DNA of 63,132 bases, filler included. It is 6 parts of 6 records of this genome, joined end to end, with 100 filler letters (N's around TTAATTAATTAA, not from the genome) between each part and the next. Parts side by side here need not be neighbours in the genome. Positions count along the whole stretch, not along the records: positions 21,881 to 45,151 come from SRR20825010_6678; 5 more parts are not named here. One strand, written 5' to 3'. A program made the translations under genes and the position numbers. How positions within the stretch are numbered: position 1 is the stretch's first letter; each line of letters starts with the position of its first letter. Below the pieces are notes generated by a model that was given only the letters and a program-made list of their open reading frames with translations, was not told the origin of the DNA and made no database searches. Shown here in pieces: positions 21,781 to 49,221 of this stretch.

Positions 21781-21880
21781 NNNNNNNNNNNNNNNNNNNN
21801 NNNNNNNNNNNNNNNNNNNNNNNNTTAATTAATTAANNNNNNNNNNNNNNNNNNNNNNNNNNNNNNNNNNNNNNNNNNNN
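21781..21880. other. Artificial contig linker
   Basis: N-run, TTAATTAATTAA (stops in all frames), N-run. Confidence 0.97.
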
Positions 21881-21883
21881 GAT

Positions 21884-23272
21884 ATGGCTGACGTCATAGA
21901 TATTAATAAGCTGATGGCTGAAATTAGCTGGCCATCGCTTAAGATGCAGCGCAAGCAAAAAGCCACTGAAATCGAAAAACGTGAATTCGACAACAACCAG
22001 GCTACATCTTTTGTACAGCGTGTGCGAACGATCTTTGCACGGGAACAATCGGACACCGATAAGAGGTATGCGTCTTTTCGCACTCTGATGCTGGAAATTC
22101 GGAGCGAAATAGATTTCGAAACTCGGGTGATCAAAATCAAAGAAGCGCTCGAAGACATGAAGCAAGAGGTTAGGCGCCAATTGCCCAAGTTGCGAGAAGC
22201 GAAAACAAAATATCAGGAAGAAAAAGCCGATTTTGATAATTACCGTGCGCTGAACGGCCTTACCCGACCAGCCATTGAAAAACCGGACCACAAATACTTT
22301 TATGATCTCATTGGCATTCTCGCCATTGAAGCCCTTGGCAACATATCGATGATTGCGCCGGTGTCACCCAATCTCGTGGTGGCGATTATTCTGTCGATGT
22401 TGATTGGCTTTGCAAACTTGAGCGTGATGTTTCTTGTCGGCTATTTTGGCACCAAAGGATTTTACACTCGCTTCCTTTGGCGCAAGGTCTGCGCCTTTTT
22501 AGCGGTAATCTTTGCAATCACCGTCATGCCATTCTTTCACTGGATTGTGAGCATGTATCGCTCACAAGCCGCTCTGGCGTCGAAAAGTCTGGAGAATGGC
22601 GACATCATGGCACTGCCCTCTGAAGGGGCGCTCTTCGAGGCTGTTGTCACCTATTTTTCGAAGCATGGAATTGGTTTTCTGGACCTCACGGCCGTCCTGA
22701 TGTTCGTCATCGGGATAATCATGGGAATATATGCTTGGTACAAAGGCCATAACTACGGAGACCCTATCACTGAATATGCAGCACGGGAAAAGAAACTGCA
22801 GGAGCGGCACGATAACTTTTTAGTTCCAAGCGAGACTCTCCGAGAGTCAATCGTCGACTTGAGGAACGAAGTGCTCGACGAAATTAGTGACTACCTCAGA
22901 ATGCTGCAGCCCCGTCTCCAAAACATCGATATGCACGTGGCTAAAATTGATGGTTTCGAGAAAGAAATAGTCCGGTTCTGCGACAGTTGCCGATCAGCGA
23001 CGGATGTTTTCCTCAAGCGGTATAAATCGGATGTACTGGAAGGGGATATTCCCCCGTGGTTTTCTGCCATCGAGGAGCAAGCGGTTAGTACGATAGAACT
23101 GCCCGATCACTTTACTATCAATCTCAAAGAAGCCAGAGATTTGGCGGAGCAAGCCCACAAACTTGCCGAGACCGAAAGGCCAAGAGCCGAAGCCTATCAG
23201 AACGAAGCATTCAACAAGGTCGATCAGCTTCAAGAAAAAGTCGATAAGCTGCTTGAGGGAGTAGACGCATGA
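21884..23272 (+). CDS. Uncharacterised membrane protein (about 4 TM helices flanked by long coiled coils); gene 1 of the MotAB-like operon, 5' end uncertain
   Basis: 462-aa ORF starting 3 nt from the contig edge. Four hydrophobic segments in the middle, heptad-rich ends, ATGA overlap with the next gene. Confidence 0.8.
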   Translation: MADVIDINKLMAEISWPSLKMQRKQKATEIEKREFDNNQATSFVQRVRTIFAREQSDTDKRYASFRTLMLEIRSEIDFETRVIKIKEALEDMKQEVRRQLPKLREAKTKYQEEKADFDNYRALNGLTRPAIEKPDHKYFYDLIGILAIEALGNISMIAPVSPNLVVAIILSMLIGFANLSVMFLVGYFGTKGFYTRFLWRKVCAFLAVIFAITVMPFFHWIVSMYRSQAALASKSLENGDIMALPSEGALFEAVVTYFSKHGIGFLDLTAVLMFVIGIIMGIYAWYKGHNYGDPITEYAAREKKLQERHDNFLVPSETLRESIVDLRNEVLDEISDYLRMLQPRLQNIDMHVAKIDGFEKEIVRFCDSCRSATDVFLKRYKSDVLEGDIPPWFSAIEEQAVSTIELPDHFTINLKEARDLAEQAHKLAETERPRAEAYQNEAFNKVDQLQEKVDKLLEGVDA

Positions 23273-24150
23273 GGCGCCCCCGAAATCACCGTTCACGGCC
23301 CCAACGGGCCCGACGGGGTCAGTCATTTTTTTCGTTTGAGTTATTGAGACGGAGCGCCGGACTTTTGTTGATGGCCGGCCTCTTCGGTACGGTTGCCTAT
23401 CTGGTGATCAATGACGACAAATGTGATTATGCCAGCACAAATTTCTGTTCAAAGGAATGCCCTCCGAAGAACATTGTCGCGATCGGGGTTGATGCGAGCG
23501 GGGGGTTTGACGCCCGCCAGCAAGCTGCTCTCATGAGCAGCATACGCAGGGCAATTTCGACTGTGCCCGGATCCGAATATTCCTCAACAGGCACAGGCCT
23601 GAGCAAAGGCGATCGTATAGATATTTACAACCTTCAGGCGGCAGCTGATGAGGCTATCGCGCCGCTATTATCAATCTGCTTTCCTGGGCAGGAGCCGACA
23701 TCAGCCAATGATAATGCTCAGTTGGTTCGGAGCTATCACAATCGATTTTGGCAAGAAGTTACTCAGGTTATTTCCGGTGGGCTAAAAGCAGAAGCGGTAA
23801 ATCAGTCACCCATTGCAGAAAGTATTGCTTCCATCGGCGATGTGGCCTTCCGGTCGGCTGACGCCATGTCATCTAAATATATGATCATCGTCTCCGACTT
23901 GCTCCAGAACAGCCCTGCATTCTCTGTCTATCGCGAAAGCCCTGATTTCAGCGCACTCAAAAAAAGACCCGAGTATGTAAAGCTTCGGACCGACCTTGGA
24001 GGAGCCAAAGTCTGCATGATCCGAATAAGTCGGTCTGATGCGCTAGAGCGCGCACGCCAAACTCCGAGACTATTGAATTTCTGGGCCGAATATGTCGCTG
24101 ACAATCTCGGCGAATACGTTGTGGAATGCGAGACGCAGTTCAGGCTTTAA
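23269..24150 (+). CDS. Membrane-anchored vWA-like protein
   Basis: Basic N-tail and one TM, Cys-rich linker, VAIGVDASG (DxS), SPIAESI, IIVSDLLQNS, resembling MIDAS-type elements. Confidence 0.65.
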   Translation: MRRPRNHRSRPQRARRGQSFFSFELLRRSAGLLLMAGLFGTVAYLVINDDKCDYASTNFCSKECPPKNIVAIGVDASGGFDARQQAALMSSIRRAISTVPGSEYSSTGTGLSKGDRIDIYNLQAAADEAIAPLLSICFPGQEPTSANDNAQLVRSYHNRFWQEVTQVISGGLKAEAVNQSPIAESIASIGDVAFRSADAMSSKYMIIVSDLLQNSPAFSVYRESPDFSALKKRPEYVKLRTDLGGAKVCMIRISRSDALERARQTPRLLNFWAEYVADNLGEYVVECETQFRL

Positions 24151-24182
24151 GCGAGTACTAACTGGGATATTGGGGGCCCGTC

Positions 24183-25667
24183 ATGAGGAAAAAATCAAAA
24201 CCTGCGAGCGAAGACACCGAGCAGGATCTCGCCACAGACGCAGGTGATGCCGACACACCTGAAGTGGCGGAAAGTCAACAAGTGGACGACACGCCACTTG
24301 ATCAAAAAGATGTATCATCCCCTCAGGAAGAAGACATTAGTGCAGTTGACCCTGAGGCACAGAAGGAAGGCGAAGGCGAAAGCGATGTCGATACGGCGTC
24401 CTTGGGGAAGCCGACTAATCCGTCGAACTGGCTTGGGGGGCGTTTTTTCAACGGCCCCCATGACGATAATGTGTCCAGTGTTACGCGAGATGTACCCCGG
24501 TACAAAGTGTCGGACCAAAAGGAAAAACAAGCATTCATTGCCGTATTGGTGGTCGGCGTGGCCTTCGTCTTTTTTACCAAACTTTTCGGCTTGCTACCCA
24601 CATGGATCATTACCGGCACTTCAATGGTACTCGTCGGCGGATACGCATATCTCGCCTATATGATGCGAAACGAGGGAATTCGGGTCGACCGCGCCGGTGA
24701 CAACGCCTACTACCTTGGCTTGGTGTATACACTTACCAGCATGTCTGTTGTACTGATCCGCGGAGATTTCGGCGCTGGTGCGGCTGAACAGATTTTGTCG
24801 GGGTTTGGTGTCGCGCTCGGATCCACAATCGCCGGTATCATATCGCGAATAATCCTGATCCAGTTCCGTGAGGGGGTAGAAGACCTGGAGCGAAGTGCAA
24901 TGGTTGTCCTCAAAAACACCGTGCAAGACCTTGAGCACGCACTCATCAGTTCCGTTGAGCGGGCAACTGCGTTTTCTCGTGTGTTGGAAGATCACTCCTT
25001 GGCCGTGAAGGACACGTTCGCGGCGAGCTTCAAGGAGATCGAGACAACATCTCATGAGAACGTGAAAGAAATGAGCACTGCCCATATTGAATCACAAAGG
25101 GCGCTTGCGGAAGAAACCAAAGAAATCCTCAAAAGCGCTCGGGACTCTATGGCAGAAGCGGTGACACATATGGCTGAAACCAGTCAGATAATTCGTGATG
25201 GTGCGAAGAGTGAACGGGAAGAATTTGGCCGCTTTTTGCAAGCGATCAGTACATTCTCCACCCAATTGGAAAAAGTTCAGGTCCCAACAGACATCATCAC
25301 CGAGTTCATCCGCAGCCTTGAGGAACAACGCGACCATACCCGTCGCATCATCAGCGACACCGATTTGCTATATACAAATCTCAATGACAAAAGTGTCAAC
25401 CTGAACAGGCGTCTTGAGGATATCACAGCAGATATTCAGGAACTCGCGAAGTCTATCAAGGACGAACACTCTTCAGTTTCAGATGTGACACATAGCTTGG
25501 CAGCGTTGGCCGATGAGGTAAAACGCTCCGGTACGCAGATCTCTGCCACCAGTACATCGCTCAACGCAGGCGTCGACGAATTCAAAAAGAACAGCAGTGC
25601 CTATGTGAACACACTTGCTGAAACAGCAAATTTTCTCGCTGATGAAATTGGCCGAGGCAAACGGTGA
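24183..25667 (+). CDS. MotA/TolQ/ExbB-like proton-channel subunit with long helical tail (ZorA-like architecture)
   Basis: Four TMs. YYLGLVYTLTS and GFGVALGSTIAG resemble the last two MotA/ExbB TMs. C-terminal coiled coil of about 265 aa. Confidence 0.7.
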   Translation: MRKKSKPASEDTEQDLATDAGDADTPEVAESQQVDDTPLDQKDVSSPQEEDISAVDPEAQKEGEGESDVDTASLGKPTNPSNWLGGRFFNGPHDDNVSSVTRDVPRYKVSDQKEKQAFIAVLVVGVAFVFFTKLFGLLPTWIITGTSMVLVGGYAYLAYMMRNEGIRVDRAGDNAYYLGLVYTLTSMSVVLIRGDFGAGAAEQILSGFGVALGSTIAGIISRIILIQFREGVEDLERSAMVVLKNTVQDLEHALISSVERATAFSRVLEDHSLAVKDTFAASFKEIETTSHENVKEMSTAHIESQRALAEETKEILKSARDSMAEAVTHMAETSQIIRDGAKSEREEFGRFLQAISTFSTQLEKVQVPTDIITEFIRSLEEQRDHTRRIISDTDLLYTNLNDKSVNLNRRLEDITADIQELAKSIKDEHSSVSDVTHSLAALADEVKRSGTQISATSTSLNAGVDEFKKNSSAYVNTLAETANFLADEIGRGKR

Positions 25668-26743
25668 TGCGGCAATCGGATACAGAGTATCGCCGTGGAA
25701 CACTTCTCGGCCTCACTCTAGCGGAAACACTGCTCATTCTGCTTTTCCTGTTTCTTCTCCTTTTTACAGATGTCATCGACCAAAAGGACAAGGAGCAGGA
25801 TAACCTGACGGCTGAGATCAAGCGTTGGCGAGAGGGGATCGAGAGTATTTTCGAAGTCCAACAGCCAGAGAAGTTGCCGGGAAAAATCGATCCGCAAGAC
25901 CTGGATCGCCCTCTCGATGAGTTGCAGCTTATTGCCAACGAATATGCCACGGCCCGTGAAGAAATTGATCAACTGAGAAGTACACTTTCAAAAATTTCCG
26001 ACGACCCATCAAAGATGGATGAAGTGGTTGAGCGTATCAAAGAAGTCGCCAAAGCAGAGGCCGAACTAAAAAAAATAGAAGAAAAGTTACCCAATAAGGA
26101 TGTTTTGGTCGCCCAGGCCGAACAGCTTAAACCGCAGGAAAACCCAGGCGCGGTTATCGAACAGGTCATGGGTGAGCGACTGGCCTTGCAGCAACAAGGC
26201 GGGAACATTGATGACGCCATTACATGTGCCGGCAAGCTCAAATCGTGCGACATGGAAAAGGAAGGTCTCATCCAAAAGTTTGCGGCAACCCTCGCGAATT
26301 TGGAGCCGGCGTCATGTTTAAAGTCGAATATGTCGTTAGATGGGATTCTGTCCGAAGGGAGCATTCTCTACAGCTTCGACATTTACCTTTCGCCTGAAGG
26401 TATCATGGTCATCCAGGGCGATGGTGTCCCCCCTCGGCCAGAGTATGGCTGGTATACGGATTGGTATGCGACGTTGGGCACGCTACCACTAGAGAGACCC
26501 CTTTCCGCCGAAGAGTTTCGCCGCGCGTTCAAGCCCTTCTACGACAGAGCTGCCATCACAAACAATGCCGAACAAGGGCGGGATGGCAGGCCGTTTGGTA
26601 ACAGCACGCTGGACTGTCGATTTTATGTTCGGCTCTTTCGCACGCCTGACCTGACCGATGTAAATTCAGCCGAAACCTTGCGCCACAGTGTTGAAAATAT
26701 CTTCTATAAAAGCGAGCGGGGATCAAAAGCCTATGATGGTTGA
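25664..26743 (+). CDS. MotB/ExbD-like single-pass partner with coiled-coil stalk
   Basis: GLTLAETLLILLFLFLLL single TM with Glu at the Asp position, coiled coil, C-terminal alpha/beta domain. GTGA overlap with the upstream gene. Confidence 0.62.
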   Translation: MMRQSDTEYRRGTLLGLTLAETLLILLFLFLLLFTDVIDQKDKEQDNLTAEIKRWREGIESIFEVQQPEKLPGKIDPQDLDRPLDELQLIANEYATAREEIDQLRSTLSKISDDPSKMDEVVERIKEVAKAEAELKKIEEKLPNKDVLVAQAEQLKPQENPGAVIEQVMGERLALQQQGGNIDDAITCAGKLKSCDMEKEGLIQKFAATLANLEPASCLKSNMSLDGILSEGSILYSFDIYLSPEGIMVIQGDGVPPRPEYGWYTDWYATLGTLPLERPLSAEEFRRAFKPFYDRAAITNNAEQGRDGRPFGNSTLDCRFYVRLFRTPDLTDVNSAETLRHSVENIFYKSERGSKAYDG

Positions 26744-26945
26744 TAGCGCCCTGAAACTAGCCTTGAGCAAGTTGCTCAGTAGTGCGTTGAAGCGCGTCGG
26801 CACCGAGTATGATTTCGAAGGCGTGGATTCTTTCCACCCCCGTGAAATTAACGACCTGAGGCCGATGTTTTCGTCACTGAAGGACCGGCAAGCAATTTAT
26901 TTGCGAGCGCGCTACCATATCCAGAAATTCATCCGCAAATTCTAA
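26733..26945 (+). CDS. Small hypothetical protein, possible fifth operon gene
   Basis: ATG overlaps the end of the MotB-like gene. About 70 aa. Confidence 0.4.
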   Translation: MMVDSALKLALSKLLSSALKRVGTEYDFEGVDSFHPREINDLRPMFSSLKDRQAIYLRARYHIQKFIRKF

Positions 26946-26989
26946 ACCCGAATGCGCTTGGAAGGGCGGCATGGCAACGGGAAACCCTG

Positions 26990-28024
26990 TCAAACTCCCT
27001 CCAATCTCAACGCAATTATTTCCTTGGCTTTCAGGCGAATTTCGCGACTGAAATCGTACCAGTACCGCCCCTCTGGCACATATTCAAAGTCGTGCAGCTT
27101 GGGATCCGTGAGCGCGTCGGTCACAATGCATATTCGGTATATGCCATCTGCAAAATGACCTTTTTCAAATGCCCTCATCTTCTTTGTCTCATTCGGACTA
27201 AACTCTGCCTGCACATCAGGCACTGATCGTCCTTTAACCTCAATGCATAGCGTGGTGTCTGCCCGCTGGGCCTTCAGGTCATACCCCAAATTTTGGTCTT
27301 CAAAAGACTCGACGCTATAGCCCAAGCCAACGAAATGCCGTTTGACGTGCTTGATTGCACTCTTTTCCACACGCTTATTATTTTCCACATCGACACGGCG
27401 CTTCGCCTTTTTTGTCAGCGGTCGAGGCACACGTCCGGCGACAATATCGTTGATCGCCGCCTGGATATGCGCACATTGGTCTGTCGCTTTATTGAGATAA
27501 AAAACCGGCGCCTGACCGGGCCATCCACTCCCTCTGCCTTGGGCTGTCGGGATGATGGTTGTGCGTTTACTGAGCGGGAGCAGATGACAGTCTCGCGCTT
27601 TCGCTTTCACTCTGAAGGTGAACTGTTCGCCTTTATAGGTCCGCATTTTCTTCGCGTTTTCATCATCATGTTCTTGCGGGTAACGGTAGAGAGTGGCGTT
27701 GTCATACCACCCCACGATCGCTTTTCCTTTGCCTTGGCGGGCAGGTGCCGTCCAGACTACTCTCACACCCTCGATGGCTTGATCTTTGGGCGCCGCCCCC
27801 AGGTTTTGAAGATTGAGCTGTTTCGGCTGACCGGATGACAAGGCATATTGGACATGGCCGTAACAGTATCCATCGATGTTCAGAAAATTGAACATTTCAT
27901 GGCTCCAGTCCAATTCGGCGGGCCATTTAAAACCGCCAGCATAAAAGGAAGGCGGGGCCTCATATCCCTGATATTCTTTCATCCATACGCCGTGCAACAG
28001 GACGGTTGGCGGTGTTTCTGGCAT
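26990..28024 (-). CDS. DUF3883/NOV_C PD-(D/E)xK nuclease with an uncharacterised N-terminal domain
   Basis: EKSAI...LGYDL...IEVKG...FSPNE. GGGAG RBS before the ATG at 28024. Confidence 0.8.
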   Translation of the reverse strand: MPETPPTVLLHGVWMKEYQGYEAPPSFYAGGFKWPAELDWSHEMFNFLNIDGYCYGHVQYALSSGQPKQLNLQNLGAAPKDQAIEGVRVVWTAPARQGKGKAIVGWYDNATLYRYPQEHDDENAKKMRTYKGEQFTFRVKAKARDCHLLPLSKRTTIIPTAQGRGSGWPGQAPVFYLNKATDQCAHIQAAINDIVAGRVPRPLTKKAKRRVDVENNKRVEKSAIKHVKRHFVGLGYSVESFEDQNLGYDLKAQRADTTLCIEVKGRSVPDVQAEFSPNETKKMRAFEKGHFADGIYRICIVTDALTDPKLHDFEYVPEGRYWYDFSREIRLKAKEIIALRLEGV

Positions 28025-28249
28025 TGCGTGCTCCCATTTGGCATCAGACGTCGGCTGAACCTGAATGCATGGCCGCAACTTAGCCAAATATTTTCACACC
28101 TGTCACGAGCAAAAGCGCTCCCCAGCAAGCCCTCACAACCAGAGACAGTGAAGCACGCATTCGGCCCACACTCAAATATGGTTAACGCTGGACGCATGAA
28201 GTTTGCATCCGCATTTCTCTCGTCGGCCTTCATTTTCCGTTCAATATAT

Positions 28250-28282
28250 TTATCATCGATAACTTTCGGTTATCGATGATAA
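28250..28282. repeat. loxP-like palindrome, putative recombinase crossover (res) site
   Basis: TTATCATCGATAA-CTTTCGG-TTATCGATGATAA: perfect 13-bp arms with a 7-bp spacer, directly upstream of the recombinase. Confidence 0.8.
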
Positions 28283-28289
28283 TTGTGCT

Positions 28290-29438
28290 ATGCTCGCCAC
28301 CATGTCCGACCCCGAAAAAGCCGATGAAACGGCCGATCGGCCACCGTTGTCACCTCCCCTCGAGGCGGACCAAGGCCTCACGCCTGACGCACCTGCCACC
28401 AATCTGTTTACAACCGCCGACGCGGACGCTGCCCTTCTTATGGGGTGGCTTCCGGTCCAGGAAGCGCTACAACACGACCTGGATGAAGTGTATGCCCGGG
28501 TACGCGAACTCTCCTCGATGGCGCGTTCGGAGAATACCAAACGGGCCTACCGGGCCGGCTGGCGCCAGTATGAGGACTGGTGCCGCGGCATTGGGGTCAA
28601 ACCGCTCTCCGGCGACCCTGGCATCGTCGCACTCTATCTGGCCATGCTCTCGAAAAAGGTGCTGCCCTCGACCCTCAAGGCCCGGCTCGCGGTGATCTCG
28701 GTCGCGCACCGCCTCGCCGGCATCAAGCTCGACACCCGCCACGAAGCGATCCGGCTGGTGTGGCAAGGAGCGGCGCGCGAGAAAGGCCTCGCGCCGCGCC
28801 GCCAAGCTCGCGCGCTGCACTATCGGGCGCTGCCCGCGCTTATGGATGTGTTTGATGATTGCCCGCTCGATATTCGCAACAAAGCCATGGTGCTCCTCGG
28901 CTTCGCTGGCGCGCTCAGGCGCACCGAGATCTCCCAAATGGCGCTGGAGCATGTCACCCTCGCCAGAGACGGTCTCACGCTCTTCCTACCCCGCTCCAAG
29001 GCGGACCGTTTTGGTCTTGGCGAGAAGATCTTCATCTCTCCCCATCCTGACGCGCGCTTGTGCCCAATCAAAGCCCTCACAGCCTGGCTCAAGATCCGGC
29101 CCGAAAGCGGCAGCCGGCTCTTCCTGTGTGCGAACAGGAACGGCAGTTTCCGGGACAAAGGGATCAGCGAGCAAACCGTCGCGCGTATCGTCAAGGATGC
29201 GGTCGAAGCCCTCGGCTTCGACCGCACCGTCTATAGCGGACATAGCCTGCGCGCCGGGCTGGCCACCTCCGCCGCTGACGCCGGCTGCGACCTCAAGGCC
29301 ATCATGACCCAAACCCGGCTGCGCACCGCCAAACAGGCCATGACCTATATCAGGGATGCGGAGCGGCGAAGGCAGAGCGTGACGCGGACGCTGTTTCAGC
29401 CGATCGAGGTGGACAGTCAGGAGCCCTCACCCCCTTGA
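28290..29438 (+). CDS. Cre-like tyrosine recombinase (start may be 28302)
   Basis: SENTKRAY SAM-like domain, GALRRTE, RSKAD, SGHSLRAGLAT, catalytic Tyr in AMTYIR. Confidence 0.92.
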   Translation: MLATMSDPEKADETADRPPLSPPLEADQGLTPDAPATNLFTTADADAALLMGWLPVQEALQHDLDEVYARVRELSSMARSENTKRAYRAGWRQYEDWCRGIGVKPLSGDPGIVALYLAMLSKKVLPSTLKARLAVISVAHRLAGIKLDTRHEAIRLVWQGAAREKGLAPRRQARALHYRALPALMDVFDDCPLDIRNKAMVLLGFAGALRRTEISQMALEHVTLARDGLTLFLPRSKADRFGLGEKIFISPHPDARLCPIKALTAWLKIRPESGSRLFLCANRNGSFRDKGISEQTVARIVKDAVEALGFDRTVYSGHSLRAGLATSAADAGCDLKAIMTQTRLRTAKQAMTYIRDAERRRQSVTRTLFQPIEVDSQEPSPP

Positions 29439-29444
29439 GGGAGC

Positions 29445-30656
29445 TCATAGTTCCCTTTGCGCCCGTTGCCTCGCTTCATAGGCGCGCACGTCTGACACGG
29501 GCACCCGGTGCGTAATCCGCTTGCCGTGCCACAAAGGTTGATCTCTCAAATGGCCGCTAGCCACCAACCGGTCGAACTCCCGTTTCCCGATCGACAGGCG
29601 CGCGCAAGCATCCCTTTTTGTCAGAAAATTAGCCTGTAGCGGATCGAAGCCTCGTGCGCCGCCGCACCCGGTGACGCCCAACCTGATTTCTTCCTGAATA
29701 ATAAAATTATGTGTTTCGTTGAGACAGCTATCTACTGTGACGACCTGCTTGACCCCGTACAAAGTCGGATAGAGCCGCCCCAGAGAGTTCCAAAGGCCGC
29801 TTTCACTGACGGCTTCGTCCAATAAGCGGGCTTCGTGGCATTGGCGGAGATAGTTGTGGAAACTCGTTGGCCAGTGCTCGATGGCTGGCACCACCAATTT
29901 CGCGAATTCCGGCCGGTCGAAATCGTTCACCTCGTTTTTCCGCTCAGGATGATAGCGATAAAGAAGCTCCAAGGTCGTGAGCAGTTCGCCGAGCGACATC
30001 ACATCTGCTATTCTATGACAGTCGTTAATTCCGAGACCTAGTCCCCACTTCCCCGCCTTATGGGCAACCAGACGGGACAATTTGAGAGCTGGTTCCGTGG
30101 CCGGGCGCGATTTCGCCTCATACAGAGCAGCACCGCATTCACCACAGCTCAATGGATCGGGGCGGAAGCAGGTAAGCCGGGCACCACAAGAAGGACAGCG
30201 GTCGCACAACATCGTGTTGTGACGAGGACATGCGGTGAATACGCGCAGCTCCCAGCAACGGTAGAAAAACCCGTCTTCCGCCAGGCATTCTGCGCAGAAG
30301 CGACGTGCCTGGACATCCACATTTTTTGCCCGAGCCACTTCACCGCCCGGCACAAACACGAAGTTTGCCGGCTTCCGCTCCGGCTTAAATGTCATTCTGG
30401 TAAAGCGACCGGCGAAGTAGCCAGCGTCGGCGTCCATCTTCTCGGCCAAGAGCCGGAGGGTTGCCAGATATTCCTTCCGCGGCTCGATATGACACCCGTA
30501 GGTCTCGGCGATGGCTTTGATCGACGGATAATAGTTGGCCGCAGTCAACCGCATCAGATAGCCAACAAAACTTTCGCGGGCGTGCGGTACCACAAAGATA
30601 GGGAAAGCGAGTGGCCTATCACGAAGCGGCCGGGACGGGATTTTACGCTCAATCAC
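29445..30656 (-). CDS. tniQ: TniQ/TnsD family target selector with C-terminal Xis-like HTH
   Basis: PHARESFVGYLMRL..AN and Zn ligands CAEC, CPRH, CPSC, CGEC. GTG start overlaps the tnsC stop. Confidence 0.88.
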   Translation of the reverse strand: MIERKIPSRPLRDRPLAFPIFVVPHARESFVGYLMRLTAANYYPSIKAIAETYGCHIEPRKEYLATLRLLAEKMDADAGYFAGRFTRMTFKPERKPANFVFVPGGEVARAKNVDVQARRFCAECLAEDGFFYRCWELRVFTACPRHNTMLCDRCPSCGARLTCFRPDPLSCGECGAALYEAKSRPATEPALKLSRLVAHKAGKWGLGLGINDCHRIADVMSLGELLTTLELLYRYHPERKNEVNDFDRPEFAKLVVPAIEHWPTSFHNYLRQCHEARLLDEAVSESGLWNSLGRLYPTLYGVKQVVTVDSCLNETHNFIIQEEIRLGVTGCGGARGFDPLQANFLTKRDACARLSIGKREFDRLVASGHLRDQPLWHGKRITHRVPVSDVRAYEARQRAQREL

Positions 30657-31548
30657 ACCATTGATCCGAGAAAGGGTTTCCGACGCCTTCCAGATCTTTT
30701 TCTTGGCTGCACAACTGGTTAAAAGCGCACCAGAGATCTTTGGCCACAATCTCCTCCCGACGCTGTGACAAGGCCTCTAGCCCAGCCGCGATCAGAAGCC
30801 GCGAAACAAACCCTACCCGCCCCAGGGTTGCCCGGTGAACTTGTGCTGCCATGGCTTTTGTCGCCAACATAGAGGCGTTAGCGAAAGGCATCGCATCGCT
30901 TAGAAAGAGCAATAAACATTGAAAGGCCTCAATCTCGTCCTGGGATGTAAAGCCAAATGGCTGAACGGTAACAATCCGTTGGGTCCGGCGATGCAACTGC
31001 TCGCTGGACGAAATGACTTGTGTCATCTTAGGAAGGCCGAACACGAAGATCGAAAGGTGGATTTTATCAATAAGGGCTTTGAACCAGTCGACACATTTTT
31101 CAAGAACTTTCTCTGTTTCGCGATCGATAAAGTGATTCAACTCGTCAAACACCACGGCAGAGACTTTCAGGTCCTTTATAAGACCGACAGCGCGAGTGGT
31201 GAGCTCTGAAGTCCGGCCTTTTTCAGCCCGAGGATCGCCAAGTGCCTCCAAGACGGCTGTGGCTAAATTTTTGACCGTGCTATTCGGAGGAACGTAGACA
31301 ACCAAGATGGTGCCACCACCAAGGACACTTCCTCCGTTCCGGCGGACAAAAAACTCCATCAAGCTTGTTTTACCCAGACCCGTCGGTCCCTGAACAAGCA
31401 TCATCTTGCCCGATTTCGCTCTTTTCATGCTGCAGTGAAAGAGCCGGAGTTCACGGGCTAACCGATCGATTTGGTCGTACACTTGGTATTGGTGATCGAG
31501 CGCTCCCAGAATTGTCACACGCTTTTCAACTTCATCCTCGGTCAACAT
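30649..31548 (-). CDS. tnsC: TnsC/TniB AAA+ ATPase
   Basis: Walker A GPTGLGKT, Walker B VVFDELNH, QLHRR arginine finger. Lies between tnsB and tniQ. Confidence 0.9.
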   Translation of the reverse strand: MLTEDEVEKRVTILGALDHQYQVYDQIDRLARELRLFHCSMKRAKSGKMMLVQGPTGLGKTSLMEFFVRRNGGSVLGGGTILVVYVPPNSTVKNLATAVLEALGDPRAEKGRTSELTTRAVGLIKDLKVSAVVFDELNHFIDRETEKVLEKCVDWFKALIDKIHLSIFVFGLPKMTQVISSSEQLHRRTQRIVTVQPFGFTSQDEIEAFQCLLLFLSDAMPFANASMLATKAMAAQVHRATLGRVGFVSRLLIAAGLEALSQRREEIVAKDLWCAFNQLCSQEKDLEGVGNPFSDQWCD

Positions 31549-33476
31549 TTGGACGTACCTCGCTCTTTATCCTGCAAACTTTTGCGAAGGGTCGCAATCT
31601 CTTGGTGCGTTGAGGCATCCGGATTAAGGGTGTTTTTAGGCGCCTTTGCCTTGGGTCGCCGCGGTGTCTTCAGAGCTGCAACTGCGTGAGCTCGATCATT
31701 GCCGCGCACCACTTTCCGGCCGTATGCGGTAAGATGCTTCCTGATTTTTCGTGCTTGCACCGCCGCGTCTGAGCCCGCGATAAGTGCCTTCTCGCGCTCC
31801 ACTTCCTCAGCCCTTATGGCCTCATGGAGCCACAGGTCGCGCCCTCGGTATTCCGTCTTGTCGGTCGGCACCTTGATAAACCGCTGCTCATTCGGAACTT
31901 TGACGTAAATAGCCCCGATATCTACAGGGTCTACTCTGAGATCGATTATGAAAGGCTTAGCCCCGAGCTTCTGCCAAAGTCTCTTTAACTCGTCACTCTG
32001 GTAAAATGTCCCGTGAATTTCGATACCACGCTTCTGCAGTGTGCGCGTCTCATGAATGGAACAGCTCATGCGCACCGATTCAGGGCTGGCTGGCAGGTCC
32101 ACGGGGAACTGCTTCACGCCTTCGACCCACTTATTCATCGGAATGTCGCAGAGTGTCCTATGAAAACGGTGAACATACACATCGACTATCCACTTATGCA
32201 GACTCTCGTAGAGCTCTTGATAAGGTATACAAGCTCTCTGAGCTGCAAGCGTTACTTCAGTTGTATTCTCGACATCGGGAATGAAGCCAGGCAAACCTTT
32301 CAGAAAACTGACCTTAAGCGTTCCAAAGAAGGACTCTATCGTGCCTTTCCAGTTGGGTGAACCGGGCGGGCAAATGACCGTATCAATACCCATTTCGACA
32401 CACATCCGCTCGTGCGCTTCCCCGACAAACGGTGCCCCACGATCGGCCACCAATTTGTGTGCCAGACCATGAACCGGGTATGCCTTCTCCACCGAAGGCA
32501 GGCTCGAAAGGAGGTCACTATACCCGAGAATACCACGCCGGATCCCAGCGCCAACACTTGCAAAATCCGCTCGAAACCCAAGGGAAATGGCCCACGGCAC
32601 GCGCGAAAACAAATCGATCGCGACATATAGCCAGGGACGAATGACACCCCCACCAGGCAAGGGGATGTAAATGGGCAGCATCTGATGGTCTTCATAGAGA
32701 TATTGAAGCGGCGCAGTGGCCTCATAGCCTTTACCTGTCGCCCGAAACTGAAGGTCAGCATGGCGGCGTCCATGGTGGGCGACCGCAACAGTGTAGCAAT
32801 CAAGGCTCCCGAAGACACGATAGCACGTCGCTTTACTGACCGTCTTTGCTCTTCCCGTGTACCCGGCAGCGGCGCGGATATTTTCAATTCCGGGAATAAT
32901 TTCTTCTTCGATTATGACGCGCTTCGAAGGTGGATTGACTTTCAAAAATTCTCGCTTGATGACCTGTTCGCAGAACGTCATTTCTTCATCCGTGAAGGCA
33001 TGCCTTTTGCGGCCGCGGCCACGGAATTTAGGCACCAGAACGTCGTTGTTTTTACCATGCCTGAGCCATTCCCGATACCAGCTCGCCACTGTACTTCGCT
33101 TTGGCGGACGTTTATCCGCAATGATTACCGCGACATCACGGATCACAGCCTCTATAATCGAACGGACGGATTGGTCGGGGCGACACGCACGGTGCAGCGA
33201 CGTAACGTACCAAAGTCGCCTGCTGTAGACCTCCTTGGCTTTTCCGGTTAGGTCTACCCTGTAGCCGAGCTTTTCCTTTTGTTCTTCAGGCTGAAACAAA
33301 GTCAATTCACCTGAGAGAATTTTCGCTTCCAGATCCTCCCTGCTCATTGTGCGATGGCGACCGTTCGCCACAATCTTGAGCACCACCCCATGCCGAGTTT
33401 CTAACTCGTCGATTTTCAGGTCAGTATCACCATCAAACAAAATAAGACCGACGTGCAATTTGATCCGTTCACTCAC
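31542..33476 (-). CDS. tnsB: TnsB/TniA DDE transposase (Mu-like)
   Basis: YEDH, IDLFSR, VADRG, KGTIESFF (DDE intact) and Mu C-terminal VDPVDIG. GGGAGG RBS before the GTG at 33476. Confidence 0.92.
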   Translation of the reverse strand: MSERIKLHVGLILFDGDTDLKIDELETRHGVVLKIVANGRHRTMSREDLEAKILSGELTLFQPEEQKEKLGYRVDLTGKAKEVYSRRLWYVTSLHRACRPDQSVRSIIEAVIRDVAVIIADKRPPKRSTVASWYREWLRHGKNNDVLVPKFRGRGRKRHAFTDEEMTFCEQVIKREFLKVNPPSKRVIIEEEIIPGIENIRAAAGYTGRAKTVSKATCYRVFGSLDCYTVAVAHHGRRHADLQFRATGKGYEATAPLQYLYEDHQMLPIYIPLPGGGVIRPWLYVAIDLFSRVPWAISLGFRADFASVGAGIRRGILGYSDLLSSLPSVEKAYPVHGLAHKLVADRGAPFVGEAHERMCVEMGIDTVICPPGSPNWKGTIESFFGTLKVSFLKGLPGFIPDVENTTEVTLAAQRACIPYQELYESLHKWIVDVYVHRFHRTLCDIPMNKWVEGVKQFPVDLPASPESVRMSCSIHETRTLQKRGIEIHGTFYQSDELKRLWQKLGAKPFIIDLRVDPVDIGAIYVKVPNEQRFIKVPTDKTEYRGRDLWLHEAIRAEEVEREKALIAGSDAAVQARKIRKHLTAYGRKVVRGNDRAHAVAALKTPRRPKAKAPKNTLNPDASTHQEIATLRKSLQDKERGTSKC

Positions 33477-33477
33477 T

Positions 33478-34068
33478 TCATCCTCCCATCTTCGGGTTTC
33501 GGGATAATAGGCAGTCGGGTCCAAGGCCTGCTGACAGGTCGGCTTGCAGCTGGCAGGAGATAATTAGCTGATCCACGTGACCTTCTGTGCCCAGGTAGCT
33601 CACCAACTGAGCCAGTGTGGCTGGCCATTCACCCGGGTAGGCGTCGAGCCTTTCCAATAGTTGACGAGACGGTACTTGCCGTCGGCTTCGTCGCAGGCGT
33701 GTGACCGTTGCCCTGACGGAAGCATCGAGCAAGAAATCACGATCAAAAAGCCGAAGCTGCAGGCCTGCACGCTGCATGGCCCGGCAGGTTTCTGATAGAG
33801 CTTTCGGAAGGGCGCCCGCCGGGCGCAAATCGGCAAAATAGGTGCCTGAAAAGGTGTACACCAACGCCGGAAACTTTTGTCGGGCCATGCCGTTGATATC
33901 CGGGGACATCACTTGCGCACGAATATGGCGCACATGGGGGTCTACATCCAGATACTCAAACAGGGCCTGCTGTGCCACACCACGCCACTTGAGAATACCG
34001 TCCGATTTCCTGCTGGCAATATAGCCTTCGAGAAAAAGGCGGGTCTGCGGAGTAACATCGATACCCAT
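33478..34068 (-). CDS. tnsA: TnsA-like protein with degenerate nuclease active site
   Basis: GYIASRK, LDVDPHV...AQ, GLQLRLF follow the TnsA_N pattern, immediately upstream of tnsB. The catalytic E, PD and ExK motifs are absent. Confidence 0.7.
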   Translation of the reverse strand: MGIDVTPQTRLFLEGYIASRKSDGILKWRGVAQQALFEYLDVDPHVRHIRAQVMSPDINGMARQKFPALVYTFSGTYFADLRPAGALPKALSETCRAMQRAGLQLRLFDRDFLLDASVRATVTRLRRSRRQVPSRQLLERLDAYPGEWPATLAQLVSYLGTEGHVDQLIISCQLQADLSAGLGPDCLLSRNPKMGG

Positions 34069-34265
34069 CAATCCCTCCTCTCAATACCGCACGCAGACAA
34101 CAAAGTGGGGCGATGACGAGCTAACTCTTGGATTTGTATGCCAGATGCGAGGGCACAGCTGTTGATCCAGCACCCTCCAATGGCTTGGCGCCCATAGAAG
34201 ATCCCCGAATGCACCAACGTCGCCACCAGGTTACGCGTGTTGCAAAAAATGAAACACCAGGACAT
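34068..34265 (-). CDS. Small Cys-rich ORF heading the tns operon
   Basis: AGGAGG 5 nt before the ATG. Stop overlaps the tnsA start. Confidence 0.35.
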   Translation of the reverse strand: MSWCFIFCNTRNLVATLVHSGIFYGRQAIGGCWINSCALASGIQIQELARHRPTLLSACGIERRD

Positions 34266-34601
34266 ATCGGCCTCCTGTTGACACCTCCTCTAGGGTGCGC
34301 GAGGTCGAATGCAAGTCAATAAATATTCGCTAAGGCTATGAATTGCAGGGAGTTTTCATGACAAAAACACGGCATTAGAAAATGTTTTCCGAAATAAAGG
34401 AGGCGACTCGCCAACATTTTAGAAAATCTAATCTACAAATTTATTGCCATACATAAGTATAATAAAACCACTATTTTATAGAGTGATTATTTTTATTATA
34501 TATATAACTAACAATTACTTTAAAAGCATAAAGATTGTCCCCCGAAACATGCCCGCAAAGCTTCTGGAGAGGTTGCGTGAAAAGAATGAGATGTTGGAAA
34601 A

Positions 34602-34952
34602 TCAGCTTTGAGCTTCAAAAATGGCATTAATCGCGCTGCGCGTGGCCTTCAGCGTCTTGAGATCCATCGCGACAATATCCGCAACGAGACGCGCTTCAAG
34701 ATTCACGTGTTCTTTCGTTTTTTTGGTCTGGTCGGTGGTACTGCGGCCAAACACGAGTTCATCCAGACCACACTCAAGTGCCTGAGCCAAATCAATCAGC
34801 GTGGCAAGATTTGGCGCATTCACACCGCGCTCAACTTGAGATATCGTAAACACCGAGCGGGCTGACAGGCCAGCAAGGTCTTCCTGCGTCAGGCCTCTGG
34901 CCTTCCGGTAGGCGCCGATGCGCGCGCCAATGATATTTGCTAGTTTATCCAT
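34602..34952 (-). CDS. XRE family HTH transcriptional regulator
   Basis: IGARIGAYRKARGLTQEDLA...ISQVERG...LIDLAQAL. Confidence 0.9.
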   Translation of the reverse strand: MDKLANIIGARIGAYRKARGLTQEDLAGLSARSVFTISQVERGVNAPNLATLIDLAQALECGLDELVFGRSTTDQTKKTKEHVNLEARLVADIVAMDLKTLKATRSAINAIFEAQS

Positions 34953-35003
34953 CCTAGTAAAATGCAACGGGTTTGGATGGCACTGAATATACATACCTAC
35001 TAT

Positions 35004-35032
35004 TTGACGCCATAAATCAGCGACTATATACT
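35004..35032 (+). promoter_or_regulatory. Sigma-70 promoter divergent from the XRE gene
   Basis: TTGACG-N17-TATACT. Confidence 0.7.
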
Positions 35033-35070
35033 GGTTGCACATTCAGGTTTCTATTCGAGGAAACGGAACC

Positions 35071-35328
35071 ATGGCCGAACAAACAGATAAGCTTGCAGCA
35101 GCGCATGAACTCGAACTGTCGATTGTGAATGCTGTCTTTGACTATGTGAACGACGATGACAGCAAGGCGGGATTTGGCATCAGCGCAGCATTCAGGGCCT
35201 GCGTGTCGCTGGCCAAAAACTCCTCCATGTCACCTCAGACGCGGATGGCGCTTGCACAGCATGTTTTCCTTGACATGACCGGCGACCTCACACCGTCAAC
35301 AATCCGCGGTGCGAACGACCGGCAATAA
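35071..35328 (+). CDS. Small hypothetical protein
   Basis: GAGG RBS and near-consensus promoter upstream. 85 aa. Confidence 0.6.
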   Translation: MAEQTDKLAAAHELELSIVNAVFDYVNDDDSKAGFGISAAFRACVSLAKNSSMSPQTRMALAQHVFLDMTGDLTPSTIRGANDRQ

Positions 35329-35455
35329 CAGAACGCCCAAGCCTATGGCGAGAGCGCCATTGTTACTGACAGTTCTTGACCAGAACCGCAGGAAGTTTCG
35401 ATCTGATGCGCACCGAAGGATAAAAGGCCATAAGGCCCGCAACCCGGCACGCAAA

Positions 35456-35659
35456 TTACGTTCCCCGTTCATCTTCGGGAAGCCTTTTCCGGCGCAATCG
35501 CTGATTGCTCAGGTCTATAAGCATGCCAGCCTTGACATAGCCCTCACCGTGAACCTCCCAGCCGTCTGCAATAAGCTCATCGATTTGTTCCTGAACTTTC
35601 TCGTTCTCAAAATGCCGCCACCTGATCACTCGATATTCATATTCATCATCTGCCTGCAT
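35456..35659 (-). CDS. Small DUF4177/DUF1737-like protein
   Basis: YEYRVI...EQIDELIADGWEV pattern, purine-rich RBS. Downstream of the tRNA-like gene on the same strand. Confidence 0.55.
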   Translation of the reverse strand: MQADDEYEYRVIRWRHFENEKVQEQIDELIADGWEVHGEGYVKAGMLIDLSNQRLRRKRLPEDERGT

Positions 35660-35739
35660 CACATCCCCCTCTCTCAGAGGCCATACACGCACCTACGCCA
35701 ACGGCCAGTATCTGCAATCAACGGATATCAAAATGATGA

Positions 35740-35829
35740 TAGGGGTGGTCGGCATCGAACCGACGACCTGCCGCTTATCTGGCGCTACGGGATATAAGAC
35801 TGCTGCTCTACCAACTGAGCTACACCCCC
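35740..35829 (-). tRNA. tRNA-Ile-like gene with a 17-nt insert in the anticodon loop
   Basis: GGGGGTG/CACCCCT acceptor stem, GCTC-AGTTGGTA-GAGC D arm, GTCGG-TTCGATG-CCGAC T arm, A73. Length 90 nt = 73 + 17. No encoded CCA. Confidence 0.8.
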
Positions 35830-36357
35830 ACAAAAATTCACACGCGGCTTACCGGAGCATCATTTGAGCGGCGTCTTGTCCACGAAAATAGTGCCCCTCA
35901 AATTTGGGGGAATCGCAACTTTGATCTCCTAATCTTCGTTGTTTAAAGCAACATGAGATGGACCGAGCGAACTTAACTTGCCAAGCTCTACAATCGGTAT
36001 GGATCTCGTAAAAAGTCATCACAGCGGCCAGATGGCGGTAATATCCACAACTGGAAAATGTCATTCAATTATGCCTCAGCATTAGTGTACGAACCGGGAA
36101 ACCGCAAACCTCTGCCTAACATTGGGCGACCAAGTCATCACATGCACCCTCAGGGAAATATACTCAAATATAACCGTGTATAAGCCGTTTGCGATATACA
36201 TGATTATACTTCGATAGAAACGAAAGAAATTGTTGGACCATAACGCGGTGTCCACAATCACCTACCCGTCGCATTCACCTAGGCTATTTGTGCGCCGTTG
36301 CTGGTTAACGACAGGCCGATCATCCTCAAAACCTGCTATTGATTCTTTTGGTTTCAG

Positions 36358-36382
36358 CCGCTCTCGACCCAAAGCGGACATT
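36358..36382. repeat. Short hairpin repeat, copy A
   Basis: CCGCTCTCGACCCAAAGCGGACATT. The 13-mer CGACCCAAAGCGG recurs at 43696. Confidence 0.55.
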
Positions 36383-36390
36383 CCGCAACC

Positions 36391-37320
36391 TTACCTGCAC
36401 TCATGCACCTCGACAGTGAGGTGGCAAATGCCGATTTCGCGTTCAATACGGGATTTGTAGTGATCGGGGTGTTGCGGTGCGTGTGCCACCACAGACACAA
36501 TAGCGGCGAGCTGGTTTGAGTTGAGCCGCCACACGTGCAGGTCGGCTACCTTGTCATCCCCACTGTCTTCGATCACGGTGATGATCTTCTCGCGCGCGGC
36601 ATCGTCATCGTGCCGGTCCAGAAGGATCGCGGCGGTATCCTTGCCAAGCCCGATTGCCCATTTGGTGATAATCACGGCACCGACGATGCCCATCACAGGA
36701 TCGAGCCACACCCAGCCGAACGATTTGCCGGCCAGCAGGGCAACGATGGCAAGGACAGACGTGAGCGCGTCCGCCATCACATGCAGATAGGCTGCGCGCA
36801 GGTTATGGTCGTGATGATGGTGGTGGCTGTGACCATGGCCCTCGTGGTTGTGCTCGCCATGATGATGATGGCCACCAAGCATGAAGGCACTGGCGATATT
36901 TACCACGAGCCCCAGCACCGCAACACCAATGGCTTGGTTGAACTGGATCGACTGTGGCGTGATCAACCGTTCCACCGATTCAACCGCCATCAAAAGTGCG
37001 ACAACCCCGAGCACAATAGCGCTTGAATAGCCTCCCAGCACGCTCACCTTGCCGGTGCCGAAGCTGAACGCATCGTTGTCTGCATGCTTGCGCGCGTATG
37101 CATAGGCAAACAGCGTGATGCCGAGCGCTGCGGCGTGGGTGCCCGTATGCCACCCGTCGGCCAATAGCGCCATGGAGCCAAAGGTAACGCCCGCCGCAAT
37201 TTCAGCCACCATCATGATGACGGTCAGCCACACCACCCAGCGTGTGCGCTTCTCGGCATGGTCACTCGCACCATGGAAGTCATGATCATGTGTCCACTTG
37301 CTCATATTATCCGCGTGCAT
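36391..37320 (-). CDS. dmeF: CDF family Co/Ni/Zn efflux transporter (DmeF-like)
   Basis: SMALLADGWH, FSFGTGK, poly-His loop, NLRAAYLHVMADALTS, HLTVEV. Confidence 0.9.
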   Translation of the reverse strand: MHADNMSKWTHDHDFHGASDHAEKRTRWVVWLTVIMMVAEIAAGVTFGSMALLADGWHTGTHAAALGITLFAYAYARKHADNDAFSFGTGKVSVLGGYSSAIVLGVVALLMAVESVERLITPQSIQFNQAIGVAVLGLVVNIASAFMLGGHHHHGEHNHEGHGHSHHHHHDHNLRAAYLHVMADALTSVLAIVALLAGKSFGWVWLDPVMGIVGAVIITKWAIGLGKDTAAILLDRHDDDAAREKIITVIEDSGDDKVADLHVWRLNSNQLAAIVSVVAHAPQHPDHYKSRIEREIGICHLTVEVHECR

Positions 37321-37348
37321 TTCATGTTCCTTACTTTGGAGAAATCTC

Positions 37349-37374
37349 TGAGGTGGCCCCGAAGGGCCACCTCA
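37349..37374 (-). other. Stable intergenic hairpin between czcA and dmeF
   Basis: 11-bp perfect stem TGAGGTGGCCC with a cUUCGg loop on the minus strand. No U-tract. Confidence 0.6.
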
Positions 37375-37390
37375 TGACAGGTTTGGGGTG

Positions 37391-40567
<3,177 letters not shown>

Positions 40568-41830: not shown

Positions 41831-41831
41831 G

Positions 41832-43142: not shown

Positions 43143-43218
43143 GATGTCTACTCTCATCAAAAAACAACAGAGAGCGCGCAGCGACTGCCGCACGCGAGAA
43201 TGTCAAGATTTGAAGAGA

Positions 43219-43578: not shown

Positions 43579-43686
43579 CTTCTACCTGAGTTCGAGCTTG
43601 TGCCCTGATAGTAGGCCGCATGGGTCCACTAATCAAGTCGGCTTCTCGTGGTGTCGTATTATATTTTTGTGGCTTGGTGGTGCTTT

Positions 43687-45151: not shown

Positions 45152-45251
45152 NNNNNNNNNNNNNNNNNNNNNNNNNNNNNNNNNNNNNNNNNNNNTTAAT
45201 TAATTAANNNNNNNNNNNNNNNNNNNNNNNNNNNNNNNNNNNNNNNNNNNN
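45152..45251. other. Artificial contig linker
   Basis: N-TTAATTAATTAA-N. Confidence 0.97.
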
Positions 45252-49121: not shown

Positions 49122-49221
49122 NNNNNNNNNNNNNNNNNNNNNNNNNNNNNNNNNNNNNNNNNNNNTTAATTAATTAANNNNNNNNNNNNNNNNNNNNNNN
49201 NNNNNNNNNNNNNNNNNNNNN
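49122..49221. other. Artificial contig linker
   Basis: N-TTAATTAATTAA-N. Confidence 0.97.

Follow-up and report, generated by a model that had tools for sequence, protein, structure and literature searches.

The window analysed here is a 63,132-nt stretch of DNA made up of a chain of at least six contigs, which are joined by linkers (44 N, TTAATTAATTAA and another 44 N) at positions 21781-21880, 45152-45251, 49122-49221, 52484-52583 and 56853-56952, so that features are not to be read across the joins. We describe a Tn7-like element on the contig at 21881-45151, in which a TnsA-like protein with all three catalytic positions replaced is encoded next to a Cre-like tyrosine recombinase, and which we predict to transpose replicatively. 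This contig is 99.99-100% identical to positions 901054-924324 of a Kordiimonas sp. chromosome record (hereafter G001; a metagenome-assembled genome of 4,179,304 bp, labelled complete), which puts the element at 0.9 Mb in the chromosome of a marine alphaproteobacterium; the same record was used for views past the ends of the contig. The core of the element, at 28248-34071, consists of a 37-bp palindrome, the recombinase gene on the plus strand and, convergent with it, tniQ-tnsC-tnsB-tnsA on the minus strand (protein lengths in amino acids, aa; HTH, helix-turn-helix):

28173-28247, no strand: conserved stretch left of the palindrome, with likeness to sequences of genome G120 and of the marine metagenome run X7
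28248-28284, no strand: 15-7-15 palindrome, candidate crossover site, ATTTATCATCGATAACTTTCGGTTATCGATGATAATT
28290-29438, plus strand: Cre-like tyrosine recombinase, 382 aa (PF00589, E 3.7e-13), the proposed cointegrate resolvase
29445-30749, minus strand: TniQ target selector (PF06527, E 4e-16; weak C-terminal HTH_17 match below the Pfam cut-off)
30649-31548, minus strand: TnsC/TniB AAA+ regulator, 299 aa (PF05621, TniB family, E 8.9e-20)
31542-33524, minus strand: TnsB DDE transposase, 660 aa (Mu-transpos_C above the cut-off, rve below the cut-off)
33478-34071, minus strand: TnsA-like protein, 197 aa (TnsA fold; all three catalytic positions replaced)

As the original prediction for this locus had it, the four transposition genes are intact and coupled: they overlap or abut, and all five genes of the core translate whole. 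The recombinase gene indeed converges on tniQ, with the two stop codons 6 nt apart (29439-29444), and the likely start of the TnsA-like protein is the ATG at 34068 (the database copy, P0001, is 196 aa long). The claim that TnsB keeps its DDE triad holds as well: in an alignment with TnsB of a type I-F CRISPR-associated transposon (CAST; E 3.3e-29), the D, D and E residues are aligned, and they lie in the motifs EDH, ADRG and IESFF, which we take to be those of the triad. TnsB is 29-32% identical to the TnsB proteins of active short-TnsA elements and 22-26% identical to TniA of the recombinase-bearing relatives described below; compared to the counterparts in a neighbouring element with an active TnsA, the identity is 27% for TniQ, 37% for TnsC and 29% for TnsB. 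The translation of tnsC contains Walker A (GPTGLGKT) and Walker B (DE) motifs, along with a C-terminal tail (30649-30720) with the motif L-x-G-V-x-N-P-F that is also present in TnsC of the neighbouring active-TnsA element and is absent from two of the three TnsA-less TniB proteins compared; by this distribution, the tail is a candidate hook for binding TnsA or TnsB. A prediction of the complex between TnsC and the TnsA-like protein, in which our own alignments were not used, scored 0.21 against a mark of 0.34.

On its own, the TnsA-like protein matches no family in Pfam, NCBIfam, PHROG or PADLOC and no solved structure. The family is rare, with four clusters, the window protein included, in a collection of 5.8 billion clusters, and a profile search of 1.84 billion representatives yielded eight matches at E <= 1e-3; one of these, P0011, is an RTX repeat protein and was set aside as spurious. 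Three profile matches (P0007, P0008 and P0010) score above the cut-off for PF08722 and carry WESxxE, YTPD and EVK, so that the window protein is linked to TnsA by transitive homology, through short TnsA proteins that match PF08722. Among solved structures, the family profile matches Tn7 TnsA best, although the E value is marginal (0.015). An AlphaFold model based on an alignment of 25 family members reached a predicted local distance difference test (pLDDT) score of 90.4 (an earlier model from only four close sequences, with a pLDDT of 49, was too poor for use), and the top four Foldseek matches of this model were Tn7 TnsA chains, with E of 7e-8 to 1e-6, followed by the next match at E 0.06. 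Superposition on Tn7 TnsA with VIA-align resulted in Z scores of 10.2, 10.2 and 8.5 across both domains, with Z 10.2 over 170-179 residues. As modelled, the protein has the restriction-endonuclease-like TnsA fold plus a C-terminal domain.

The original prediction had aligned the catalytic motifs by eye and found all three replaced. A MAFFT alignment of 25 sequences, comprising 18 of the active type and seven dead clusters (the window protein/P0001, P0002-P0006 and P0009), agrees, with the distinction that it sets P, not A, beneath the catalytic D; either way, the stretch RQKFPALVY contains no acidic residue. All 18 active-type sequences keep WESxxE, YTPD and E[VI]K; these give way in the window protein to WRGVAQ, KFPA and DLR, the replaced positions being R30/Q34, A69 (or P68) and R83. 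In the profile alignment to the solved Tn7 TnsA, D114 and K132 of Tn7 fall over the KFPA and DLR stretches, respectively. Both E positions of WESxxE are changed in the window protein, and the second one, Q at position 34, probably matches Tn7 E63, a correspondence drawn from aligned ranges only (residue 11 of the model opposite residue 40 of the chain). The scaffold is retained, again as predicted, with G16, S20, K22, W29, L41, D44 and Q53 invariant or nearly so.

The dead state is not confined to the window protein and its closest kin. P0002-P0004 are 81-89% identical to it, P0005 48-50%, P0006 42% and P0009 19-30%, depending on the alignment; all seven dead clusters are full-length (193-232 aa). 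In each of them, the PD position is occupied by A and the K position by R or V, and the stretch equivalent to that around D114 contains no acidic residue. Given that the loss of catalytic residues is common to seven clusters down to about 20-30% identity, it is old, and the possibility of recent decay is not borne out. Nor is that of relocated catalytic residues: the confident model has the TnsA fold, and the only acidic residue that is invariant in the dead clade is D44, which occurs in active relatives too, an argument against a relocated active site. From these sequence features, we infer that the TnsA-like protein is nuclease-inactive. In the Tn7 system, May and Craig reportedly observed in 1996 that TnsA D114A gives rise to cointegrates, and TnsA is said to be required even when inactive. 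For the TnsAB fusion of a type I-D CAST, the active-site change D106A, again D to A, converted cut-and-paste transposition to cointegrate formation in 149 of 150 events, and in this tested fusion the single substitution abolished 5' cutting (PMC9881144). Scans for dead TnsA in the genome collection retrieved no genome besides G001, and none was found in the Joint Genome Institute (JGI) metagenomes.

The active-TnsA loci of the same order provide the contrast. Across 201 genomes, a profile search detected 15 TnsA loci in 12 genomes. In 14 of these loci, E, PD (TD in one) and E[VI]K are conserved; the sole dead TnsA is that of the window. No homologue of the recombinase is present in the DNA fetched for 13 active-TnsA loci (one of these being a 5.3-kb contig). 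Among 83 downstream open reading frames (ORFs) from 10 active-TnsA loci, Pfam detected one PF00589 gene, which is unrelated and lies beside an IS91 transposase, 7 kb from tniQ; the eleventh such locus, on the G001 chromosome itself, has no recombinase beside it. This locus is a second Tn7-like element, located 22 kb from the one described here, outside the stretch (L007:7649-12928, equivalent to G001:C1:930648-935927), and encodes an active-looking TnsA of 207 aa (WES, YTPD and EVK; PF08722) together with TnsB, TnsC and TniQ. The same chromosome also carries, at G001:C1:887940-888233 (L067; about 3941-4234 in L006), a truncated TnsA fragment with a 105-aa open frame and active-type motifs, near an IS3-type transposase gene, which is probably the remnant of another Tn7-like element.

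The best solved relative of the recombinase is Cre (E 4e-11, residues 76-367), with R, K, H-x-x-R and Y aligned, so that five of the six catalytic residues R-K-H-R-(H/W)-Y are kept; 12 sequences, the most distant at 37% identity, show no variation at R210/R211, K237, H318, R321 and Y353. Matches to the recombinase at E <= 1e-30 were detected in 18 of the 201 genomes of the order, and nine places in eight genomes of the same family (Kordiimonadaceae, G001 included) show 53-100% identity to it. In all eight related loci outside G001, the content of which was assessed by tblastn and pairwise blastp and, for three of them, with Pfam, the orthologue converges on TniQ-TniB-TniA without a TnsA, the TniA proteins being 533-592 aa long. 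The window recombinase is 52-65% identical to the eight orthologues in pairwise blastp comparisons (53-68% in the genome search); the orthologues are 51-77% identical among themselves, and the adjacent TniA, TniB and TniQ proteins 22-64% (blastp). Judged by their gene content, these eight loci are Tn5053-like modules with a tyrosine recombinase in place of the serine one of Tn5053.

The recombinase is thus linked to TnsA-less or TnsA-dead modules in nine of nine loci, compared to none of the 13 active-TnsA loci. The link to dead tnsA itself is seen in three close relatives, and the 89% identical TnsA homologue and the 89% identical recombinase homologue have the same longest contig size, 32,474 bp. 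The possibility that the recombinase is unlinked in related elements, on which the original prediction could have foundered, is therefore not realized. In the window and in three related loci (L027, L029 and L032), the ends of the recombinase and tniQ genes overlap or are 6-18 bp apart, leaving no space for a transposon end between them, so that the recombinase belongs to the same unit as the transposition genes; on these grounds, the candidate explanation (res-site-hunter) of a transposon that had simply landed next to a resolvase gene foreign to it was rejected. In a maximum-likelihood tree, the window recombinase and its 89% identical relative are nested, with support of 97/99, in a clade that includes four TnsA-less loci of the same genus.

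The palindrome upstream of the recombinase gene corresponds to the single loxP-like site noted in the original prediction. It ends 5 nt before the recombinase ATG, and 14 of the 15 arm positions are complementary. Its 19-bp core pattern, with two mismatches allowed, has one match in the 4.2-Mb G001 record, and a control pattern has none. A looser core, CGATAA-N7-TTATCG, is found as an exact match 0-520 bp upstream of seven of the eight orthologous recombinases, so that, with the window included, the site core is present in eight of nine loci. These properties make the palindrome a candidate crossover site of the recombinase, and a single complete, intact site adjoining the gene in each element fits a resolution site rather than an attL/attR pair. 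The conserved stretch to its left (28173-28247) is possibly the promoter of the recombinase gene or an accessory element of the recombination site. Likeness begins at 28173 for a truncated recombinase remnant in G120, at 28224 for a solo site in the same genome and at 28181 for the X7 contig. The G120 sequences themselves (G120:C28; L080:9113-9546 and L081:9641-9691) comprise a palindrome copy accompanied by just the first ~110 recombinase codons and, elsewhere, the solo site; they may be footprints of recombination or of the decay of related elements.

Comparison of public contigs with 21881-41880 shows that the element occurs in other contexts. A contig of 18,986 bp from another organism (run X3) has 27929-36232 in common with the window, at ~95% identity except in three short diverged or replaced stretches, and its DNA is unlike the window on both flanks; two contigs from a marine metagenome (run X7) cover 28181-31793 and 33265-36225, at ~90% identity. 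Given these shared stretches, the recombinase gene and dead tnsA are both present in X3, on a single contig, and in X7. At 28333-28932, 29 of the 36 differences listed for X3 (counted by eye, in the best-supported rows only) fall in third codon positions of the recombinase, a bias that argues for constraint on this gene. The features flanking the core are as follows:

26990-28087, minus strand: NOV_C-domain gene (PF13020), the first cargo gene past the site
34602-35042, minus strand: Cro/C1-type HTH protein (PF01381), 54% identical (blastp) to the same-position gene in locus L027
35035-35328, plus strand: 97-aa ORF divergent from the HTH gene, 64% identical to its L027 counterpart
35738-35830, minus strand: atypical tRNA-like gene (ARAGORN Ile(tat), 93 nt; Rfam tRNA, 52 bits)
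36114-36256, no strand: probable right-end region beside tnsA, from the X3 and X7 likeness limits; terminus not exact

The right boundary lies near 36225-36256: likeness to X7 ends at 36225 and that to X3 at 36232, with unlike DNA beyond, and a chromosomal block in common with genome G081 begins at 36364. An ACA at 36254-36256, with a similar ACA in the X3 overhang (by eye), could be a TGT/ACA terminus. On the left, only the first 53 codons of the NOV_C gene (to 27929) are in common with the X3 copy; because this limit of likeness falls inside a cargo gene, it marks a cargo switch and not an end. The HTH gene lies within the stretch common to X3 and X7, and its product is probably a regulator of the element; the neighbouring 97-aa ORF had no match in the family-library searches, and past it no DNA is conserved with the eight related loci.

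We consider it fairly probable that this Tn7-like element of the short-TnsA subfamily transposes replicatively and that its recombinase resolves the resulting cointegrates. Copying rather than excision is the likely route because the TnsA lacks catalytic residues and the recombinase is one that relatives pair with TnsA-free transposons. In the proposed mechanism, TnsB, with its triad intact, would nick and join the 3' ends, and TnsA would be kept as a subunit that is unable to cut the 5' strands because Q, A and R occupy its E, D and K positions. With the 5' strands uncut, each event would leave a Shapiro intermediate, the replication of which would produce a cointegrate with two copies of the element; the recombinase would then recombine the 15-7-15 sites, one preceding its gene in each copy of the element, and so part donor from target. 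The replicative pathway, the resolution step and the structural role of TnsA are what we infer from these data. As a whole, the original prediction of a replicative element with a dead TnsA and resolution by a tyrosine recombinase is supported, and none of the tests of it that could be computed went the other way.

The recombinase and its site were probably acquired, as a module, from TnsA-less TniA-TniB-TniQ elements of the same bacterial family. The recombinase groups within a TnsA-less clade, and TnsB, TnsC and TniQ show more similarity to their counterparts in TnsA-bearing elements, which makes the uptake of the cassette by a short-TnsA element the simplest history. More tentatively, and as a possibility that we rate somewhat below even, the element might be a living intermediate on the way from cut-and-paste to copy-and-paste transposition, in which TnsB and TnsC still need TnsA, the nuclease was disarmed and not deleted, and co-resident Tn5053-like elements supplied the resolvase cassette through recombination. 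In that case, TnsA would have a separable, essential architectural role, and resolvase cassettes would be interchangeable modules among Tn7-like transposons.

Several observations weigh against replicative transposition with dedicated resolution, and part of them bear on the function of the recombinase. The position of Cre W315 is occupied by L; at one related locus (L034), no site core is present within 700 bp upstream of the orthologue; and the linkage between dead TnsA and the recombinase, seen for the close relatives, may not extend to the distant P0005, P0006 and P0009. Furthermore, the metagenome contig collection is rich in recombinase homologues with 31-41% identity, and a panel of 33 proteins detected no relative of TnsA, TnsB, TnsC or TniQ in 80 loci with such homologues (L083-L162; 30 of these with at least 4 kb downstream), so that the recombinase family overall is not dedicated to transposons. 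The recombinase could then have another job, as an integrase that inserts and excises the unit, in TnsF-like target selection with TniQ or in dimer resolution of the host replicon, with the dead TnsA unrelated to it, an explanation that we regard as unlikely. It has precedents in TnsF, a tyrosine recombinase-like protein that serves with TniQ as a target selector, and in the active TnsF-like recombinases that move the Tsy element (PMC10293859, PMC11014353); a site adjoining the recombinase gene is typical of integrases too, and the solo site and truncated remnant in G120 are compatible with this option. However, the catalytic R, K, H, R and Y residues are invariant in this recombinase, whereas TnsF has no catalytic pocket, and the gene converges on tniQ instead of sharing an operon with it. 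An intact palindrome adjoins the gene in the integrated state, and its core pattern has one match in the genome, which does not fit an attL/attR pair, and the split of the linkage between TnsA-less or TnsA-dead loci and active-TnsA loci is complete.

Other observations bear on whether the element still moves. No left end, TnsB-binding repeat array or target-site duplication was found: nothing rose above chance in searches for inverted repeats (the tnsA side against 50 kb leftward), for recurring short sites, for a copy of the putative terminus anchored on TGT and for TATA-like boxes in a mirrored arrangement, and the eight related loci gave nothing above chance either; the element is single-copy in the complete G001 genome, and this copy may be incomplete or immobile. 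The more sweeping notion that the element is a fossil, with TnsA decaying and this copy immobile by any route, would also account for the insertion sequence (IS) fragments that are scattered over the cargo side and for the great rarity of the family. We find it less probable still, given that all five genes are intact, that dead TnsA proteins are full-length in seven clusters with a confidently predicted fold, that the recombinase shows the third-position bias indicative of constraint, and that a ~95% copy lies between unlike flanks in another organism, with ~90% copies in a marine metagenome. Finally, P0005, P0006 and P0009 keep the second glutamate, the probable equivalent of Tn7 E63, which, with the remaining D81 of DLR and D44 and the fact that R sometimes substitutes for K, could be taken to mean that TnsA is still active. 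This is very improbable because, of the acidic residues, only D44 is invariant in the dead clade and it is shared with active relatives, because the D114-equivalent stretch is devoid of acidic residues in all dead clusters, and because the equivalent D-to-A change alone ended 5' cutting in the TnsAB fusion (PMC9881144). Replicative transposition followed by resolution thus remains the explanation that we favor.

Several further features of the surroundings were considered. No empty site was found: G081, the nearest genome with the same right flank, has the block in another context. This 7.3-kb block (36364-43651), which includes genes for cation efflux and for an AcrB-family pump, shares 90.6% identity with that of G081, where it is in a different neighbourhood, the left flank of which maps 220 kb away in G001. 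In the tRNA-like gene, the variable region is enlarged by an insertion of 18 nt, and the anticodon stem contains mismatches. The X3 and X7 contigs both span this gene, of which only the generic 5' half has matches in 32 genomes of the genus. Being located inside the stretch common to two other genomes and not conserved in the genus, it was rejected as a host attachment site. A joint between 27398 and 35805 in run X1 was set aside as well, since it rests on 22 letters. The cargo at 21884-26743 consists of four co-oriented genes for proteins of 462, 293, 494 and 359 aa that have no family assignment; their only matches, to profiles of ZorA, LmuB and tape-measure proteins, are weak and of the coiled-coil type; the start of the first of these genes is duplicated 4.3 kb upstream in G001 (92.7% identity), coinciding with the contig break. 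Among sampled words of the whole 63,132-nt stretch, only 42% are present in the nearest complete genome.

If the proposed mechanism is correct, the non-catalytic role of TnsA becomes directly testable, and the same genome holds a control, namely the active-TnsA relative without a resolvase 22 kb away. The dead TnsA, TnsB, TnsC, TniQ, Cre-like resolvase and 37-bp site would together represent a compact natural design for copy-and-paste insertion with built-in resolution, with a bearing on the TnsA-less CASTs, for which cointegrate products are a practical problem.

Individual parts of the element resemble well-known systems. Tyrosine recombinases that act on short palindromic sites include Cre, with loxP, of phage P1, and those that resolve cointegrates of Tn3-family transposons include TnpI of Tn4430 and TnpS/TnpT, with rst, of Tn4651. 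As in Cre/loxP, the site in the window has inverted arms around a short spacer and adjoins the gene; the arms are 15 bp long instead of 13, the spacer is 7 bp instead of 8, and the recombinase has L in place of W315. No TnpT-like partner is conserved upstream of the recombinase in pairwise comparison of the related loci. Tn5053/Tn402 has no TnsA and uses the serine resolvase TniR with a res site, whereas the window element has a TnsA-like gene and a PF00589 tyrosine recombinase. In TnsF of Tn6022, the catalytic pocket is missing, zinc fingers are present at the N-terminus and the gene is co-transcribed with tniQ (Faure et al. 2023, PMC10293859). Both proteins have the tyrosine recombinase fold and are encoded next to tniQ, but the window protein differs in keeping R, K, H, R and Y and in its convergent orientation; it has no match to a zinc-finger family in Pfam.

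With respect to TnsA, the closest laboratory parallel is TnsAB(D106A) of the type I-D CAST, with the identical D-to-A change at the PD motif (PMC9881144). Such laboratory mutants of TnsA come without a cognate resolvase; in the window element, the change is natural and old and is accompanied by changes at the E and K positions. A natural parallel is available in the telomeric Tn7-like transposons of Streptomyces, which retain a TnsA with an altered active site (Hsieh and Peters 2024, bioRxiv 10.1101/2024.11.13.623437). In that preprint, the dead TnsA is read as an essential structural subunit, and transposition is predicted to be replicative, with resolution argued to be unneeded. Those elements are one-ended and reside at the telomeres of linear replicons, whereas the element described here lies 0.9 Mb into a 4.18-Mb record and has a dedicated recombinase and site. 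Conversely, Tn7-like branches that lack tnsA, including Tn5053/Tn402, typically gain a tyrosine or serine resolvase (tnsR), and replicative transposition has been predicted for them (Benler et al. 2021, PMC8649781). The window element is like these in combining TnsB/TniA, TnsC/TniB and TniQ with a resolvase, and the eight Kordiimonadaceae loci are plain members of this group, with a tyrosine resolvase. Compared to those elements, the window element stands apart in that tnsA persists, intact and conserved, and encodes a nuclease-dead protein, and its TnsB, TnsC and TniQ are more similar to proteins of TnsA-bearing elements (29-37%) than to their counterparts in resolvase-bearing relatives (22-26% for TnsB). 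We found no natural dead TnsA paired with a resolvase in the literature, although the supplement of PMC8649781 (Fig. S7, Table S1) could hold cases. Both halves of the scheme are already published, the loss of tnsA with the gain of a resolvase in one group of elements and the retention of a dead TnsA in another, and the combination is new; the element unites the two ideas in a single natural locus, which is a modest advance and not a new principle.

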